A stretch of 64,000 bases of DNA, taken from Escherichia coli (GTDB taxonomy: Bacteria > Pseudomonadota > Gammaproteobacteria > Enterobacterales > Enterobacteriaceae). The position numbers were made by a program, and so were the translations under genes. The notes under the pieces are model-generated. The model was given only the letters and a program-made list of their open reading frames with translations. It did no database searches and had not been told where the DNA came from. Below are positions 3,323-43,753 of the stretch, piece after piece. The stretch lies in assembly GCF_013122565.1 (NCBI RefSeq), contig NZ_CP053258.1; one strand, 5' to 3'. Positions within the stretch are counted from its first letter, which is position 1. Each line of letters starts with the position of its first letter.

Positions 3323-3910
3323 TTACTTTTGGAAGGCTTTTTTTAAGCTGATTTTGGAAATCAGCTCTGTCAGTGAAAGGACCATTGTTGATCGCACAGC
3401 CTGTTGATAGCGCTGAATTTGCATTGCATACAAACTGGAGTCTGCAGGTTCAAACTGTGGCGGCGGTGGTAACGCCGCCACGCAATGCAGTTCACCAAAG
3501 GGTCCAAGGATTTCGTCGTCGGTAAACGCGTACTCGTTGCCGTCGTGATTTAGCTCTTCACGCAATGCCATCAGCAGTTCCGCATCTTCGTATTCCTGGC
3601 GGTTAATGACGCCCAACCCGTAAATGAGTTTTAAACGCACAGAAAGATCGCCCAGCGGACCATCGCCGTCGAGTAACGGTTCTACAGCATACTTCACCGC
3701 GTAATCGTCTTTGCGGAATACCTGAAGCACCAGAAGATTTACCGCTTCGGTCAGGAGCTCGACGGCGGTGATCAGAAAGCTTCGCACGGTTTTGCCAGCA
3801 TTCAGACGCTCAAGCACACGGTTTTCAAAGGCCTGGGTTTGTTCCATTATTGCCTGCATATCTGACAATCTGTTATTCGGGCGCAGGGTGTCCTGCGCCT
3901 GGTCCACCAT
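3323..3910 (-). CDS. mtlR: Mannitol operon repressor MtlR
   Basis: 195-aa [39 protein letters not shown]...; immediately downstream of mtlD. Confidence 0.9.
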   Translation of the reverse strand: MVDQAQDTLRPNNRLSDMQAIMEQTQAFENRVLERLNAGKTVRSFLITAVELLTEAVNLLVLQVFRKDDYAVKYAVEPLLDGDGPLGDLSVRLKLIYGLGVINRQEYEDAELLMALREELNHDGNEYAFTDDEILGPFGELHCVAALPPPPQFEPADSSLYAMQIQRYQQAVRSTMVLSLTELISKISLKKAFQK

Positions 3911-5058
3911 TATTGCATTGCTTTATAAGCGGTTACCGCCTCGGATACAACCTCGCTGTTGGCATCAAGACCGGAAATCTGTGCCAGCGCTGCCTGCGGA
4001 CCTTTGTCAGCGATCAGTGCTGCCAGTTCCTGAGCCTGCGGATCATCTTCACTGCGGAAGTGCATTGCAGCGGCAATACCTTCAATCAGGTTTTTATGTG
4101 GCAGACCATATTCCAGCGTACCGAGCAGTGGCTTGATCAGACGGTCGCCAGCACTCAGTTTACGCAGCGGCTGACGGCCTACGCGCTCAACATCATCTTT
4201 CAGATACGGGTTCTCAAAACGACCGAGGATTTTCTGGATGTACGCCGCATGTTTGTCTGCGTCAAAGCCGTAACGCTTGATCAGTACCGCGCCGCTTTCT
4301 TCCATCGCACCTTTTACCACCGCGCGGATTTTCTCGTCGAGAATCGCGTCACGAATGGTCTGATGACCCGCCAGTTTTCCGAGGTACGCGGTTATAGCAT
4401 GACCTGTGTTCAGGGTGAAGAGTTTACGTTCGACAAATGCCATCAGGTTGTCGGTTAACTCCATGCCTGGGATGTTCGGCAGTGCGCCTTTGAACTGCGT
4501 TTTATCGACAATCCATTCGCTGAAGGTTTCTACCGTCACTTCCAGAGGATCGTTAGTTGCCGAAGCCGAAGGCGGCACGATGCGGTCAACGGCGGAATCG
4601 ACAAAGCCAACGTGTTCTTCTACCCACGTTTTGGCGTCTTCTGGCAGGGCGTTCATCACATGGCCTTTCAGCTGCGTGGTACCGCGTACCATGTTTTCAC
4701 AGGCGATGATGTTCAGCGGGGATTCATTACCTTGTTCTTTACGTTTCACCAGCCCTTTGGCGATAGCCGGAGCAATACGTTCCAGCACAACCGGGCCAAC
4801 GGCGGTAGTGACTAAATCGACCTGAGCAATCAGATCAACGACATCATCACCAATGCTGCTGACAGCATTGACGCCGGAAACGGTATCAACCTGCTCGGTT
4901 TCACCAACCACATGAACCTGATAGCTATGACGGGCATTCAGGGCATCAAGTACCACCTGATTGACATCGGCAAACGTCAGTTGGATACCCGCGTCTGCCA
5001 GCAGTTTACCGATAAAGCCACGACCGATATTACCTGCGCCAAAATGTAATGCTTTCAT
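3910..5058 (-). CDS. mtlD: Mannitol-1-phosphate 5-dehydrogenase
   Basis: ORF track gives 3910..5376 (488 aa); true start taken as [17 protein letters not shown] (382 aa, Rossmann GxGxxG). The upstream extension runs through REP sequences. Confidence 0.9.
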
Positions 5059-5084
5059 AGTATTAACCTTCATCAATGTTTTTA

Positions 5085-5285
<201 letters not shown>

Positions 5286-5287
5286 GA

Positions 5288-7201
5288 TTACTTATGACCT
5301 GCCAGCAGTTCCAGCACTTCATCCACGCTGGTGGTGTGTGCCAGACGCTCGATGACGGACTCATCATCCAGTGCATTGGTCAGGCTGGTGATAACCTGAA
5401 TGTGCTCGTTGTTGCGGGCAGCAATACCAATCACCAGACGGGCAATGTCATCTTCTTCTTCACCGAAGCGCACGCCTTCCGGGTACTGGCAGAACACGAC
5501 GCCCGTTTTCAGTACGCGATCTTTCGCTTCAACCGTACCGTGTGGCACCGCGATAGACTCACCCAGATAAGTCGGGGTCAGTTTTTCACGATCCAACATC
5601 GCCTGAACGTATTCCGGCTCAACGTAACCGCCTTTCACCAGCTGCTCGCCAGCAAAACGAATCGCTTCTTCTTTGGTTGCCGCTTTGCGACCGAGGAAGA
5701 TGTTCTCCGCGCCCAGTTTGAATAGGTTAGCACTGGAATCGTCAAAGCTGTCTTTCAGACTGTCTTTCACTTTCACTTCGTTTTCAGTATGGCGCTGGGC
5801 AGCAACCAGACGTTCGGTCAGGCTGGTGTACAGGCCACTGTCGAGGAAGTTGGTCAGCGAAATATGCTGCGCCTGCGGAACCTGGCGCATAGCGCGTTCG
5901 GTCAGGTCACGGTGAGTGATGACGAGGTCCACATCTGGCGGCAGGTTGTTGATCGCGCTGTTAGTGACCGAAATCTGCGACAGACCTGCATCCTGAATTT
6001 TCTTACGCAGCACGCCTGCGCCCATCGCACTTGAACCCATACCGGCGTCACAGGCAACGATGATTTTACGTACGTGGCTCAGGTCGTTAGTCACATCACC
6101 CGCAGACAGCGGAGATGCGCCTTTAGACTCAGCTTTCATGTCCTGCATACGACGAGTTGCTGCTTCAATATCATCTTCTTCTTTCACTTTGCTGGTTTTC
6201 AGCAAAATAGCAGAGACAACGAAGGAGACAGCCATCGCCGCACACACACCCGCGATGTTAGCGAAATAAGCACCTTTTGGTGTCATCGCCAGTACCGCAA
6301 GGATAGAACCCGGAGATGCCGGAGAAACCAGACCACCGCCCAGGATAGTCAGCGTGAACACGCCAGTCATACCGCCGAGGATAACGGCCAGGATCAGACG
6401 CGGATTCATCAGCACATACGGGAAGTAGATTTCGTGGATACCACCCAGGAAGTGGATGATTGCCGCACCACCCGCAGACTGTTTAGCACTACCACGACCA
6501 AAGAACATGTACGCCAGCAGCACGCCCATACCTGGACCTGGGTTAGCTTCAATCAGGAAGAAGATGGATTTACCCAGTTCATGGGACTGCTGAATACCCA
6601 GCGGCGAGAAGATACCGTGGTTAATGGCGTTGTTGAGGAACAGGATTTTCGCCGGTTCAACAAAGATAGATGCCAGCGGCAGCATGTCATGGACAACCAT
6701 GAAGTTAACGCCCGCAGCCAGCATTTTGGACAGGGCTTCAACAATCGGGCCAATGCCGAGGAATGCCAGAATGGCGAGGATCATCCCGATGATGCCTGCG
6801 GAGAAGTTATTCACCAGCATCTCAAAACCGGATTTGATCTTACCGTCTACCCAGCGGTCGAAGTGCTTAATGCACCAGCCGCCCAGCGGACCTGCAATCA
6901 TAGAGCCGAGGAACATCGGCATGTCTGCGCCGACGATAACGCCCATGGTGGTGATGGCACCGACTACGCCGCCACGTTCGCCGCCTACCAGCTTACCACC
7001 GGTATAACCGATCAGCAGCGGCAGGAGGTAAGTGATCATCGGTCCGACTAGCTTCGCCAGCGTCTCGTTCGGTAACCACCCTGTTGGAATAAATAATGCG
7101 GTGATGATACCCCACGCGATAAACGCGCCGATATTTGGCATCACCATGTTGCTGAGGAAACGACCAAAGCTTTGCACTTTGATCTTAATATCGGATGACA
7201 T
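5288..7201 (-). CDS. mtlA: PTS mannitol-specific EIICBA component
   Basis: 637-aa [40 protein letters not shown]...; recognised as MtlA. Confidence 0.95.
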
Positions 7202-7344
7202 AAAAACACCCCTTCTTATGTTTGCTGTCGCGCAGGCTGGAAGCCCGAGGTTTTTTGTTAATGTGGCGGCAGAGGTAGCCGGACCTTGTGGATAGTGCGA
7301 AATCTGGCACTGAATCGGTTAACTGTCCAGTCGTCGGCCTTTTG

Positions 7345-7521
7345 TGTGATATTAGTCACATAAATATAGGGGGTAGAGAGGTAATTGACGTGATGTCCAT
7401 CACAAAACACTTGTGTAAAAAAGCAACAAGCCGGCTGTTTTCGCTAAAAATGGCATTTAAATGTGAGTAATGTCACATTTTTGTTTTGATGGTTTGTTGA
7501 ATCTTTGTGATCTGAATCACA
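7345..7521. promoter_or_regulatory. mtlA promoter region with CRP-consensus sites
   Basis: TGTGA-N6-TCACA matches at 7345..7360 (tgtgatattagtcaca) and 7506..7521 (tgtgatctgaatcaca); near-match at 7389..7404 (cgtgatgtccatcaca). The mtl operon is known to be CRP-dependent with several CRP sites. Confidence 0.7.
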
Positions 7522-7737
7522 AGATATTTTCTTACGGCGTTCAGCTGATGTGATCTACAGCATGTTATGCCTTCGTCATAAAATCGTTATGTAACTAAGC
7601 AACTCATCACCTCTAAAAATTATTCTTTGGTGTTATGGCGAGAATCGCGAACCCGGATTATTGTCAAAATATCAGCCTGACTCCCTTCTGGCTGCCAGCC
7701 AAAAAACAACACTGATAAACGTGAATCCGAGGCAGAT

Positions 7738-8100
7738 ATGTTTCTAAACTATTTCGCGTTAGGAGTGCTGATCTTCGTCTTTCTGGTGATTTTTTATGGA
7801 ATCATCGCGATACATGACATCCCTTATCTGATTGCCAAAAAGCGCAACCATCCCCATGCCGACGCTATTCATACGGCGGGCTGGGTGAGCCTGTTTACTC
7901 TGCATGTTATCTGGCCGTTTCTGTGGATTTGGGCGACGCTCTATCAACCGGAGCGCGGGTGGGGCATGCAGTCACATGTTGCGTCGCAGGAGAAAGCGAC
8001 TGACCCGGAAATCGCCGCACTTTCTGACCGAATTTCCCGGCTGGAGCACCAACTCGCCGCCGAGAAAAAGACTGACTATTCCACGTTCCCGGAGATCTAA
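7738..8100 (+). CDS. yibI: DUF3302 small inner-membrane protein YibI
   Basis: 120-aa [48 protein letters not shown]...; stop is 2 nt before the yibH start. Confidence 0.85.
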
Positions 8101-8102
8101 TT

Positions 8103-9239
8103 ATGGATCTATTGATTGTTTTAACTTACGTGGCGCTGGCGTGGGCGGTCTTTAAAATCTTCCGCATTCCAGTAAATCAGTGGACGCTGGCGACGGCGGC
8201 GCTGGGAGGCGTGTTTCTGGTGAGTGGTTTGATTTTGTTGATGAACTACAACCACCCTTACACTTTTACCGCGCAAAAGGCTGTGATAGCGATCCCCATC
8301 ACGCCACAGGTGACGGGAATTGTTACTGAAGTCACTGACAAGAATAATCAGCTTATTCAAAAGGGCGAGGTACTTTTTAAGCTCGACCCGGTTCGTTACC
8401 AGGCGCGAGTTGACAGACTTCAGGCTGACCTGATGACGGCGACGCATAATATAAAGACGCTGCGCGCCCAGCTCACTGAAGCGCAGGCCAACACCACCCA
8501 GGTTTCAGCGGAGCGCGACCGTCTGTTTAAAAATTATCAACGTTATCTGAAAGGCAGCCAGGCGGCGGTGAATCCGTTCTCGGAACGTGACATCGACGAT
8601 GCGCGGCAAAATTTCCTCGCGCAGGATGCGCTGGTGAAAGGCTCGGTGGCGGAGCAGGCGCAGATCCAGAGCCAGCTCGACAGTATGGTTAACGGCGAGC
8701 AATCGCAGATTGTGAGCTTAAGAGCGCAACTTACTGAAGCAAAATATAATCTTGAGCAGACTGTCATTCGCGCGCCGAGCAATGGCTACGTTACTCAGGT
8801 ACTGATCCGCCCAGGCACATACGCAGCTGCCTTGCCGCTGCGTCCGGTGATGGTCTTCATCCCCGAGCAAAAACGGCAAATTGTCGCCCAATTTCGGCAA
8901 AACTCGCTGTTACGTCTGAAACCCGGCGATGATGCGGAAGTGGTGTTTAACGCGCTACCTGGGCAGGTGTTTCACGGCAAACTGACCAGTATTTTACCTG
9001 TCGTGCCAGGCGGTTCTTATCAGGCGCAGGGGGTATTGCAATCATTAACGGTCGTGCCCGGCACGGACGGTGTGCTGGGAACCATTGAACTGGACCCTAA
9101 CGATGATATCGATGCCTTACCCGACGGCATCTACGCCCAGGTGGCAGTTTACTCCGACCATTTCAGCCATGTTTCGGTGATGCGTAAGGTGCTGCTAAGA
9201 ATGACCAGTTGGATGCATTATCTTTATTTGGATCATTGA
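8103..9239 (+). CDS. yibH: HlyD-family membrane-fusion-like protein YibH
   Basis: 378-aa ORF; N-terminal TM segment, central coiled coil, C-terminal beta domain; paralog of the ORF at 16271..17407. Confidence 0.85.
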
Positions 9240-9309
9240 GACTTATATCACCTGTGTTTTGCGTGAGCCTGAGCCATACTGATATTTTTCCTCGCACAAA
9301 GGACTCGGC

Positions 9310-9918
9310 ATGAAACTCGTCGGTAGCTACACCAGCCCGTTTGTACGCAAACTTTCTATTCTGTTGTTAGAAAAGGGCATAACTTTCGAATTTATTAATG
9401 AACTGCCCTATAACGCGGACAACGGCGTGGCGCAATTTAACCCGTTAGGAAAAGTGCCGGTGCTGGTGACCGAAGAGGGCGAATGCTGGTTTGATTCGCC
9501 GATCATCGCTGAATATATTGAGTTAATGAATGTCGCTCCGGCGATGTTGCCGCGCGATCCGCTGGAGTCGTTGCGGGTGCGCAAAATTGAGGCGCTGGCG
9601 GATGGCATCATGGATGCCGGGCTGGTATCGGTGCGTGAACAGGCGCGTCCGGCGGCGCAGCAGTCTGAAGATGAATTGTTACGTCAGCGTGAGAAAATCA
9701 ACCGTAGCCTTGATGTGCTGGAAGGATATCTGGTCGATGGCACACTCAAAACCGATACGGTCAATCTGGCGACTATCGCCATTGCCTGTGCCGTTGGATA
9801 TCTCAATTTCCGCCGCGTTGCGCCAGGCTGGTGTGTCGACCGCCCACACTTAATCAAACTGGTCGAAAACCTGTTTAGCCGCGAAAGTTTTGCTCGCACC
9901 GAACCGCCAAAGGCTTGA
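9310..9918 (+). CDS. yibF: Glutathione S-transferase family protein YibF
   Basis: 202-aa [31 protein letters not shown]... (GST N-terminal thioredoxin-like fold). Confidence 0.85.
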
Positions 9919-15941: not shown

Positions 15942-16265
15942 ATGTTCCTGGACTATTTTGCACTGGGAGTGCTTATTTTTGTATTTCTGGTGATATTCTA
16001 TGGGATTATTATTTTACATGATATTCCCTACCTGATTGCTAAAAAACGTAATCATCCACATGCCGACGCCATTCATGTTGCTGGTTGGGTGAGTCTTTTT
16101 ACGCTGCATGTTATCTGGCCATTTTTGTGGATTTGGGCCACGCTTTACCGCCCGGAGCGGGGATGGGGAATGCAAAACCATGACTCCTCCGTTGTGCAAC
16201 TACAACAGCGTATTGCCGGGCTGGAGAAACAGCTCGCTGACATCAAATCCTCTTCTGCCGAGTAA
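15942..16265 (+). CDS. yiaW: DUF3302 small inner-membrane protein YiaW (paralog of YibI)
   Basis: 107-aa [48 protein letters not shown]..., nearly identical N-terminus to the ORF at 7738. Confidence 0.85.
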
Positions 16266-16270
16266 TACTT

Positions 16271-17407
16271 ATGGATTTACTGATTATTTTGACCTATGTG
16301 GCTTTCGCATGGGCAATGTTTAAGATCTTCAAAATTCCTGTAAATAAATGGACCATTCCCACCGCGGCCCTGGGTGGAATATTTATTGTCAGCGGTTTAA
16401 TTCTGTTAATGAACTATAACCATCCGTATACCTTTAAAGCGCAAAAAGCGGTTATTTCTATTCCTGTTGTCCCACAGGTGACAGGCGTGGTGATCGAAGT
16501 GACGGATAAGAAAAATACGCTGATTAAAAAAGGTGAGGTGCTATTTCGACTGGACCCGACGCGTTATCAGGCGCGGGTGGATCGGCTGATGGCGGATATC
16601 GTTACCGCAGAACATAAACAGCGGGCGTTGGGCGCAGAGTTAGATGAGATGGCGGCGAATACTCAGCAGGCAAAGGCCACGCGGGATAAATTCGCTAAAG
16701 AGTATCAGCGTTACGCACGCGGCAGCCAGGCGAAAGTAAACCCGTTTTCAGAACGCGATATTGATGTGGCGCGGCAAAATTATCTGGCGCAGGAAGCCTC
16801 CGTAAAGTCATCGGCGGCGGAACAAAAACAGATCCAGAGCCAGCTGGATAGCCTGGTGTTGGGTGAACATTCTCAAATCGCCAGCCTGAAAGCGCAGCTC
16901 GCGGAAGCAAAATATAACCTTGAGCAGACGATAGTGCGTGCGCCGAGCGATGGTTATGTGACCCAGGTGCTGATTCGTCCGGGTACCTATGCCGCGTCGC
17001 TGCCGCTACGTCCGGTGATGGTGTTTATACCCGATCAGAAACGACAAATTGTGGCGCAGTTCCGTCAGAACTCCTTGCTGCGACTGGCTCCTGGCGACGA
17101 TGCGGAAGTGGTGTTTAATGCTCTGCCAGGTAAGGTATTCAGCGGTAAGCTGGCAGCCATTAGTCCAGCCGTTCCCGGCGGAGCTTATCAGTCGACCGGC
17201 ACCTTACAGACGTTAAACACAGCGCCGGGTTCAGATGGCGTTATCGCGACCATTGAACTGGATGAGCATACTGATTTGAGCGCATTACCAGACGGTATTT
17301 ACGCCCAGGTGGCGGTCTACTCTGATCATTTCAGCCATGTCTCGGTGATGCGCAAAGTACTGTTACGCATGACCAGCTGGGTGCATTACCTTTATCTCGA
17401 TCATTAA
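16271..17407 (+). CDS. yiaV: HlyD-family membrane-fusion-like protein YiaV (paralog of YibH)
   Basis: 378-aa [39 protein letters not shown]...; same length and architecture as the ORF at 8103. Confidence 0.85.
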
Positions 17408-38361: not shown

Positions 38362-39540
38362 CTACAACATGACCTCGCTATTTACATCGCGATACTCTTT
38401 TGGCGTCGTGTCATATGCTTTTTTAAAAACAGAGTAGAAATATTGCAGCGATGGATAACCGCACATTTGCGATATCTCATTGATCGACAAGGTGGTTGAA
38501 ATCAGCAGACTGCGCGCTTTCTCCAGCTTCTCGGCATGAATCATGGCATGGATGGTTTCACCCACCTCTTCTTTAAAACGCTTCTCAAGATTGGAGCGCG
38601 AGATCCCGACCGCATCGAGTACCTGATCCACTTTAATCCCTTTACAGGCGTGATTACGAATGTAATGCATGGCCTGAATAACGGCGGGATCGGTCAGCGA
38701 ACGGTAATCTGTTGAGCGCCGTTCAATGACGCGAACTGGAGGGACCAAAATCCGCTGTAGCGGCATTTCTTCTTTATCTAATAATCGATGCAACAGTTTT
38801 GCCGCCTGATAGCCCATTTGCCGCGCGCCCTGAGCGACCGAAGAAAGGGCGACACGCGACAGATAGCGGGTCAGTTCTTCGTTGTCGATGCCAATCACGC
38901 ATAATTTTTCCGGTACGGGAATGTGTAGATGTTCACATACTTGCAGAATATGCCGCGCCCGGGCGTCAGTAACGGCAATAATCCCGGTTTGCGGTGGCAG
39001 CGTTTGTAGCCAGTCTGCCAGCCGATTTTGCGCGTGTTGCCAGTTCTCTGGTGCGGTTTCTAACCCCTGATAAACCACTCCGCGATACTTTTCTTCGGCG
39101 ACAAGCTGACGAAATGCATATTCGCGTTCAGTGGCCCAACGTTTGCCGCTTGATTCCGGAAGACCATAAAAAGCAAAGCGGTTAACGCCTTTCTCTTTTA
39201 AATGCAAAAATGCGCTTTCAACCAGCGCATAGTTATCGGTGGCAATGTAATGAACGGGTGGGTAACTTTCTGCAAGGTGATACGAGCCGCCAACCCCAAC
39301 AATGGGGACGTCGACATCAGCCAGCGCTTGCTCGATTTGTTTGTCGTCGAAGTCGGCAATGACGCCATCTCCTAACCAGTCCTTGATTTTATCAATGCGG
39401 GCGCGGAAATCTTCTTCAATGAAAATATCCCATTCTGATTGTGATGCCTGTAAATATTCCCCTACGCCTTCTACTACCTGCCGGTCATAGGCTTTATTGG
39501 CATTGAACAGTAATGTGATGCGGTGACGTTTAGTAAACAT
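38362..39540 (-). CDS. xylR: Xylose operon transcriptional activator
   Basis: 392-aa ORF MFTKRHRITLLFNANKAYDRQVVEGVGEYLQ...; C-terminal AraC-type HTH. Confidence 0.95.
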   Translation of the reverse strand: MFTKRHRITLLFNANKAYDRQVVEGVGEYLQASQSEWDIFIEEDFRARIDKIKDWLGDGVIADFDDKQIEQALADVDVPIVGVGGSYHLAESYPPVHYIATDNYALVESAFLHLKEKGVNRFAFYGLPESSGKRWATEREYAFRQLVAEEKYRGVVYQGLETAPENWQHAQNRLADWLQTLPPQTGIIAVTDARARHILQVCEHLHIPVPEKLCVIGIDNEELTRYLSRVALSSVAQGARQMGYQAAKLLHRLLDKEEMPLQRILVPPVRVIERRSTDYRSLTDPAVIQAMHYIRNHACKGIKVDQVLDAVGISRSNLEKRFKEEVGETIHAMIHAEKLEKARSLLISTTLSINEISQMCGYPSLQYFYSVFKKAYDTTPKEYRDVNSEVML

Positions 39541-43388: not shown

Positions 43389-43753
43389 GGTGTAGGGCCT
43401 TCTGTAGTTAGAGGACAGCTTTAATAAGTAACAATCACCGCGATAAACGTAACCAATTTTTAGCAACTAAACAGGGGAAAACAATTACAGATTTTTATCT
43501 TTCGATTACGATTTTTGGTTTATTTCTTGATTTATGACCGAGATCTTACTTTTGTTGCGCAATTGTACTTATTGCATTTTTCTCTTCGAGGAATTACCCA
43601 GTTTCATCATTCCATTTTATTTTGCGAGCGAGCGCACACTTGTGAATTATCTCAATAGCAGTGTGAAATAACATAATTGAGCAACTGAAAGGGAGTGCCC
43701 AATATTACAACATCATCCATCACCCGCGGCATTACCTGATTATGGAGTTCAAT
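43389..43753. promoter_or_regulatory. Divergent xylA / xylF promoter region (expected XylR and CRP control)
   Basis: AT-rich intergenic region between divergent xylF and xylA; contains a TGTGA half-site (cttgtgaattatctcaat). Exact operator positions not resolved by eye. Confidence 0.5.

Follow-up and report, generated by a model that had tools for sequence, protein, structure and literature searches.

The window (the whole 64,000-nucleotide stretch of Escherichia coli DNA that was analysed) contains intact mtlA, mtlD, and mtlR genes on the minus strand and, on the opposite strand, yibI and yibH, with a divergent mtlA-yibI intergenic region of 536 bp. The genes and the regulatory features upstream of mtlA are as follows.

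about 3323-3910, minus strand: mtlR, repressor, 195 aa (NCBIfam MltR family, 256 bits)
about 3910-5058, minus strand: mtlD, mannitol-1-phosphate 5-dehydrogenase (NCBIfam NF002648, 878 bits)
5288-7201, minus strand: mtlA, PTS mannitol transporter IICBA, full-length, 637 aa (NCBIfam NF011663, 1323 bits)
7202-7293, minus strand: mtlA 5' untranslated leader, about 93 nt, highly conserved
7294-7329, minus strand: mtlA core promoter, with the -35 hexamer TGGACA at 7329-7324, a 17-nt spacer, and the -10 hexamer CAGATT at 7306-7301
7309-7324, no strand assigned: Cra(FruR)-like left half-site CTGAATCG, between -35 and -10, read from the sequence
7345-7360, minus strand: CRP5 core, promoter-proximal, exact (10/10), TGTGATATTAGTCACA; centre 7352.5, published centre -58.5
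7389-7404, minus strand: CRP4 core, 9/10, CGTGATGTCCATCACA (TGTGATGGACATCACG on the mtlA strand); centre 7396.5, published centre -102.5
7462-7477, minus strand: CRP3 core, exact (10/10), TGTGAGTAATGTCACA; centre 7469.5, published centre -175.5
7506-7521, minus strand: CRP2 core, exact (10/10), TGTGATCTGAATCACA; centre 7513.5, published centre -219.5
7549-7564, minus strand: CRP1, weak, 7/10, TGTGATCTACAGCATG; centre 7556.5, published centre -262.5
7738-8100, plus strand: yibI, divergent from mtlA and followed by yibH on the same strand

The published centres are those of the K-12 operator map as relayed by Lee et al. 2026, discussed below. The annotation of mtlA as a PTS mannitol transporter is shared by the homologous genomes, and the mtlR product matches PDB entry 6kcr, 'Mannitol operon repressor' (E=2e-124). 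Since mtlA, mtlD, and mtlR all lie on the minus strand, the CRP sites are upstream of mtlA, which is where the original prediction had put them. The segment 7150-7800 matches 5404 of 5426 complete E. coli genomes, always between mtlA and yibI, and the start codon of yibI lies 181 bp past CRP1.

The surroundings of the locus vary between strains. In the window (9239-9310), as in strain ECNB21-M121, yibH is directly followed by yibF, selA, and selB, and K-12 carries Rhs and Imm57 remnants after yibH (K-12 locus positions 5090-6651); from these sequences, the Rhs element downstream of yibH reads as a presence/absence polymorphism. The gap between mtlA and mtlD measures 229 bp in the window (5059-5287) and in K-12, and 94 bp in ECNB21-M121 (locus positions 6045-6138), a strain which is 100% identical to the window over 7150-7800. 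This difference indicates an indel polymorphism and mosaic relatedness, the indel possibly being a REP element. A second pair of genes like yibI and yibH, in the same order, occurs at 15942-17404 (74% and 77% amino-acid identity); these paralogues are presumably yiaW and yiaV.

Core promoter and CRP sites upstream of mtlA

We place the transcription start near 7294, because the CRP5 centre was set at -58.5, its position in the published map. A start at 7294 puts TGGACA at -35 to -30 and CAGATT at -12 to -7, which provides an independent consistency check from the sequence. The core promoter sequences CTGGACAG and GTGCCAGATT are conserved in the 15 Enterobacterales operators compared. The -10 hexamer CAGATT matches TATAAT at three of six positions only, and for this reason a sigma-70 consensus scan of the window missed the mtlA promoter, its only hit falling in a coding region, as expected for an activator-dependent promoter. 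The missed call is consistent with a weak -10 and is no argument against the mtlA promoter.

Class III CRP-dependent promoters combine two or more CRP sites on one promoter with a weak core promoter in need of an activator. Here, a single inferred start is preceded by four strong CRP sites and a weak one, and the core is weak, as seen from its -10 hexamer, from its escape from the scan, and from the phenotype of a crp deletion (PMC13421365). CRP5, at -58.5 from the published start, misses the canonical Class I position (-61.5; Class II: -41.5) by 3 bp.

The mtlA promoter is stated to contain a Cra site, with Cra and Fis acting as additional repressors (PMC13421365). The GATTCAG motif of the Cra-like half-site is conserved in Enterobacteriaceae, and a Cra full-palindrome consensus gave no match in the promoter at up to three mismatches. 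Since this full consensus is unmatched and only the left half-site is visible, we assign CTGAATCG to Cra tentatively. In the leader, the sequence AACCUC would be able to pair with the Shine-Dalgarno sequence AAGGGGUG; RNAalifold predicts a weak structure for the leader (-8.6 kcal/mol), essentially without covariation, and an Rfam search of 7150-7800 at a permissive threshold found no family.

A search of the 64 kb for the palindromic pattern TGTGA-N6-TCACA yields three exact cores and one single-mismatch core within 7345-7521, in non-coding DNA upstream of a catabolic promoter. The original prediction had located the motif correctly and had counted two exact matches and one near-match; the count falls short, as there are three exact sites, one near-match, and one weak site. 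By chance, 0.02 exact cores would be expected in 64 kb, and none of 100 shuffles reached three, the corresponding expectation for cores with up to one mismatch being 1.73 per 64-kb window. When the ten core positions are scored over the whole window, at least 9/10 is reached at five sites, four of them inside one 177-bp stretch upstream of mtlA. For four such sites together, a Poisson estimate gives a probability of about 2e-11 for a given 177-bp stretch and of about 8e-9 for the window as a whole. The intergenic region itself is AT-rich (42% GC), and shuffling it 20,000 times never produced more than two sites at 9/10 or above.

The centre-to-centre spacings are 44 bp between CRP5 and CRP4, 73 bp between CRP4 and CRP3, 44 bp between CRP3 and CRP2, and 43 bp between CRP2 and CRP1. 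CRP1, whose right half reads GATCACA on the mtlA strand, lies just outside 7345-7521 and could not be called on sequence grounds alone, as the window has 220 sites at 7/10 or higher; we recognise it only by its spacing and from the literature.

A few other cores stand out in the window. The remaining 9/10 core, at 38922-38937 (TGTGTAGATGTTCACA), lies inside the coding sequence of xylR (ORF 38362-39540, minus strand) and is probably a chance match. Two 8/10 cores 18 bp apart, TGCGAGCGAGCGCACA and TGTGAATTATCTCAAT, occur at 43623-43656 in the divergent xylF-xylA intergenic region, and this pair probably corresponds to the xyl CRP site already known. Four more 8/10 cores are grouped within 380 bp in the 5' part of lldP, inside its coding sequence (1650-2030), where about 0.2 would be expected.

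Agreement with the K-12 operator

In K-12, the CRP sites of the mtl operator are centred at -262.5, -219.5, -175.5, -102.5, and -58.5, which gives spacings of 43, 44, 73, and 44 bp from CRP1 to CRP5, as stated by Lee et al. 2026 (PMC13421365) on the basis of Ramseier & Saier 1995. The spacings in the window equal these published values to the base pair. The numbers of consensus bases reported for K-12, 7/10 for CRP1 and 10/10 for both CRP2 and CRP3 (PMC13421365), also agree with those of the window. The sites thus line up with the mapped CRP footprints, as relayed by Lee et al. 2026, in spacings, match counts, and K-12 half-sites. Misalignment with these footprints was the outcome that would have told against the original prediction; its reading is therefore sound in this respect, although it made no mention of the functionally important 43-46 bp spacing of the site pairs.

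An alignment with K-12 over 556 bp contains 16 substitutions and no indels, and none of the changes touches a CRP pentamer; five of the 16 are located in N6 spacers, namely those of CRP3, CRP4, and CRP5. Over 7150-7800, the window is identical to ECNB21-M121, and its identity to K-12, as to most other strains, is about 97.5%. Identity of at least 99% is found in four of the 5404 matching complete E. coli genomes, nearly all others being at 95-99%, so that the mtl operator allele of the window is an uncommon one in which all CRP half-sites are unchanged. Compared with the K-12 mtlADR operator-promoter, the window has the same locus, the same five sites with their half-sites and 43/44/73/44 spacing, the same -35 and -10 hexamers, and the same flanking genes mtlA and yibI, and differs as an allelic variant substituted at 16 of 556 bp, the N6 spacers being non-contacted. 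Judging from this comparison, no functional difference between the two alleles would be expected.

The function of the individual sites is described for K-12. A crp deletion leaves mtlA expression low and prevents growth on mannitol (PMC13421365). Physical, cAMP-dependent CRP binding is reported for the K-12 sequence, whose half-sites are identical to those of the window (PMC13421365). Chromosomal replacement of CRP2, CRP4, or CRP5 abolishes mtl expression, whereas replacement of CRP3 has a small effect and that of CRP1 none; the corresponding mutants M2, M4, and M5 lose both expression and growth on mannitol (PMC13421365). CRP2, CRP4, and CRP5 are reported to be essential in K-12, and CRP1 to be poorly occupied and dispensable (PMC13421365). 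The authors assign the promoter to Class III, with CRP5 as the likely contact of RNA polymerase, and propose an architectural or anti-silencing role for the upstream sites (PMC13421365).

The repressor MtlR supershifts CRP-DNA complexes only when two occupied CRP sites are 43-46 bp apart, and the MtlR-CRP-DNA ternary complex has been observed by EMSA for K-12, Salmonella enterica, and V. cholerae (PMC13421365). Dephospho-HPr competes for MtlR, which brings repression back in the presence of glucose (PMC13421365). In the window, three pairs of adjacent sites have a recruiting spacing, CRP5-CRP4 (44 bp), CRP3-CRP2 (44 bp), and CRP2-CRP1 (43 bp), CRP4-CRP3 at 73 bp being of the non-recruiting kind. 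Moreover, mtlR and a full-length mtlA with its IIB domain are present in the same operon.

Conservation of the operator in other species

We scanned 100,044 species, each represented by one genome, for pairs of perfect cores at a distance of 33-63 bp and obtained at least 120 loci. Among the matches listed, at least 14 loci (15 pairs) have a 44-bp perfect pair directly upstream of an mtlA homologue; they belong to Enterobacter (five), Klebsiella, Citrobacter, Pluralibacter, Pseudescherichia, Superficieibacter, Pectobacterium, Brenneria, an Orbaceae genome, and one MAG. In the gammaproteobacteria bearing a mannitol operon among these matches, every 44-bp pair is directly upstream of mtlA, and the 44-bp perfect CRP pairs of enteric bacteria listed there occur at mtlA only. 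The other 44-bp pairs among the matches listed come from a Bacteroidetes MAG and an actinobacterium, with no mtlA in the locus examined.

The operators compared across species were chosen for having one perfect pair. The CRP2-3-4-5 spacing is 44/73/44 in 14 of the 15 Enterobacterales operators and 44/74/44 in Brenneria. When the 15 operators are oriented and anchored, the columns without variation coincide almost exactly with the GTGA and TCAC half-sites, whereas the N6 spacers and the DNA between sites diverge freely; in the Enterobacterales compared, each of the four strong sites has half-sites that vary little or not at all. The loci were selected without regard to the pentamers of CRP4 and CRP5, apart from two loci in which the CRP4-CRP5 pair is itself the perfect one. 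In 14 non-redundant operators these pentamers reach 1.79 bits per column, compared with 0.67 bits for the N6 spacers and 0.68 bits for the inter-site DNA, a result which none of 100,000 permutations attained. Purifying selection on the half-sites, with N6 free to vary, is thus apparent in the CRP4 and CRP5 columns.

CRP1 behaves differently. It scores 8/10 in several Enterobacteriaceae and is missing in E. cloacae, a Klebsiella sp., Pectobacterium, and Brenneria, a patchy conservation which fits its published poor occupancy and dispensability (PMC13421365). In E. coli GPEC1054, an IS21-family element (istA/istB) is inserted between CRP2 and CRP1, at about window position 7537, and cuts both CRP1 and yibI off from the mtlA promoter; such an insertion is compatible with the reported dispensability of CRP1.

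The distance from the array to the mtlA start codon is nearly fixed, at 148.5-154.5 bp in Enterobacteriaceae, and in at least eight species the array occurs at loci that show no yibI or yibH homologue upstream. Because of this near-constant distance and of its presence without yibI and yibH, we consider that the array belongs to mtlA.

Besides the CRP half-sites, the mtl operators of 13 Enterobacteriaceae share three conserved elements: TTTTTTACAC (mtlA strand, 7413-7422), in the 73-bp gap between CRP3 and CRP4, the block CCCCCT (7368-7373) between CRP4 and CRP5, and most of the leader. TTTTTTACAC looks Fis-like. It is conceivable, if rather unlikely, that TTTTTTACAC, CCCCCT, and the AACCUC element of the leader could serve regulators yet to be assigned or translational control, or that the distal CRP sites might also bring the uncharacterised yibIH operon, which is induced in urine, under CRP control.

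Regulatory model, alternatives, and other pairs of CRP cores

We are highly confident that the minus-strand region 7294-7564 constitutes the operator-promoter of the mannitol operon mtlADR of E. coli, with the mechanism described in the K-12 literature. The array is the already characterised control region of this operon, published in 1995 and whose mechanism was extended in 2026. The functional steps of the model, i.e. CRP binding, site essentiality, MtlR bridging, and sequestration, are carried over from K-12 and would apply here by analogy.

Five cAMP-CRP sites, of which CRP2-CRP5 are strong and CRP1 is weak, would thus act on a weak sigma-70 promoter. At high cAMP, CRP dimers would occupy CRP2 to CRP5. 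The dimer at CRP5 (-58.5) is thought to contact RNA polymerase in a Class I manner, and the upstream dimers would also be required, probably for architectural reasons, which would make this a Class III CRP-dependent promoter. The same array would be a landing pad for MtlR, a repressor without a DNA-binding domain, a dimer of which would bridge two CRP dimers only at a centre-to-centre distance of 43-46 bp. The pairs CRP4-CRP5, CRP2-CRP3, and CRP1-CRP2 would be eligible for such bridging, and CRP3-CRP4, at 73 bp, would be excluded. Mannitol transport would dephosphorylate EII-Mtl (MtlA), whose IIB domain would then sequester MtlR, drawing it to the membrane and relieving repression.

Control of the divergent yibIH operon by the array, or by its distal part CRP1-CRP3, in addition to or instead of mtlA, seems improbable to us. 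The sites do lie within the shared 536-bp intergenic region, for which a genomic SELEX study lists RpoD promoters in both directions (yibI-mtlA spacer); CRP sites are directionless because they are palindromic, and the distal ones are far from the mtlA start. Nevertheless, the 44/73/44 array keeps its almost constant distance from the mtlA start codon, it persists in the species mentioned above whose loci lack upstream yibI and yibH homologues, and in K-12 the chromosomal mutation of CRP2, one of the distal sites, abolishes mtl expression (PMC13421365). In addition, the IS21 element of GPEC1054 parts yibI from CRP2-CRP5, and the promoter scan contained no yibI promoter-like site. An extra role of the array in yibIH control is therefore disfavoured. 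An even weaker case, which we regard as very improbable, is that the promoter-proximal site alone matters and that the other matches are chance occurrences or functionless relics. The positions -175 and -219 are unusually distant from the start for a direct contact between CRP and RNA polymerase, and the 9/10 match at 38922 in xylR is probably a chance one. Against this, three exact cores in 177 bp compare with 0.02 expected, the half-sites of the four strong sites are nearly invariant in Enterobacterales when the intervening sequence is not, the spacing is conserved to the base pair, and the K-12 mutants M2 and M4, like M5, lose expression and growth on mannitol (PMC13421365). Statistics and conservation together exclude a chance origin of the array.

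The tandem CRP sites could also be thought of as an anti-activation module of the CytR type, where a DNA-binding repressor is held between two CRP dimers as at deoP2, instead of an anchor for MtlR. The logic is the same, as CytR likewise depends on two neighbouring DNA-bound CRP dimers in tandem, with critical spacing, at deoP2, cdd, and similar promoters, and a 7/8 match to the CytR octamer, AAAGCAAC, is present at 7420-7427 between CRP4 and CRP3. However, CytR binds DNA itself through octamer repeats located between the CRP sites, whereas MtlR reads only the 43-46 bp geometry. The octamer found here is a single one, with 0.23 expected by chance in the region; it is not conserved, other species reading TGTTCTTTTTTTACAC; and it sits in the 73-bp gap, outside any 44-bp pair. 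Instead of octamer repeats (GTTGCATT/AATGCAAC) between tandem CRP sites there is one unpaired, non-conserved 7/8 octamer, and we reject the CytR module. The operon moreover has its own repressor, MtlR, which supershifts CRP-DNA in vitro (PMC13421365). Taken together, these observations leave a CytR-type module with hardly any likelihood.

Two other known systems resemble parts of this operator. The malE-malK region is likewise a multi-CRP array in a divergent intergenic region that forms a higher-order nucleoprotein complex. The 34-bp spacing at malK does not recruit MtlR unless lengthened to 44 bp (PMC13421365). Sequestration of Mlc by EII-Glc is likewise an induction by capture of a repressor at the membrane by a dephosphorylated PTS transporter; Mlc is, unlike MtlR, a conventional DNA-binding repressor, and the parallel bears on the proteins of the circuit rather than on the CRP array.

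The CRP array itself is fully explained and opens no new question. The main value of the analysis lies in calibration: a multi-site CRP operator was correctly located from raw sequence, and the published map was recovered to the base pair, including the 43-46 bp spacing by which MtlR uses CRP as its DNA anchor. The 44/73/44 geometry, kept within 1 bp from Escherichia to Pectobacterium, gives modest independent support to that claim (PMC13421365).

Perfect core pairs with other spacings were also recovered in the scan. Among the matches listed, a second family, with cores 57-58 bp apart (56 bp in one case), occurs in several Enterobacterales, and similarity to E. coli places its Citrobacter member in the intergenic region between atpC and glmU, so that other spacings belong to other loci. 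Pairs 49-52 bp apart recur, among the same matches, in Haemophilus and Rodentibacter (Pasteurellaceae). The gammaproteobacterium HTCC2148 has an intergenic 43-bp pair with no mtlA within its 3.5-kb locus. Finally, many of the matches listed come from Bacillales; these are probably sites of another regulator sharing the core, and we suspect Rex.
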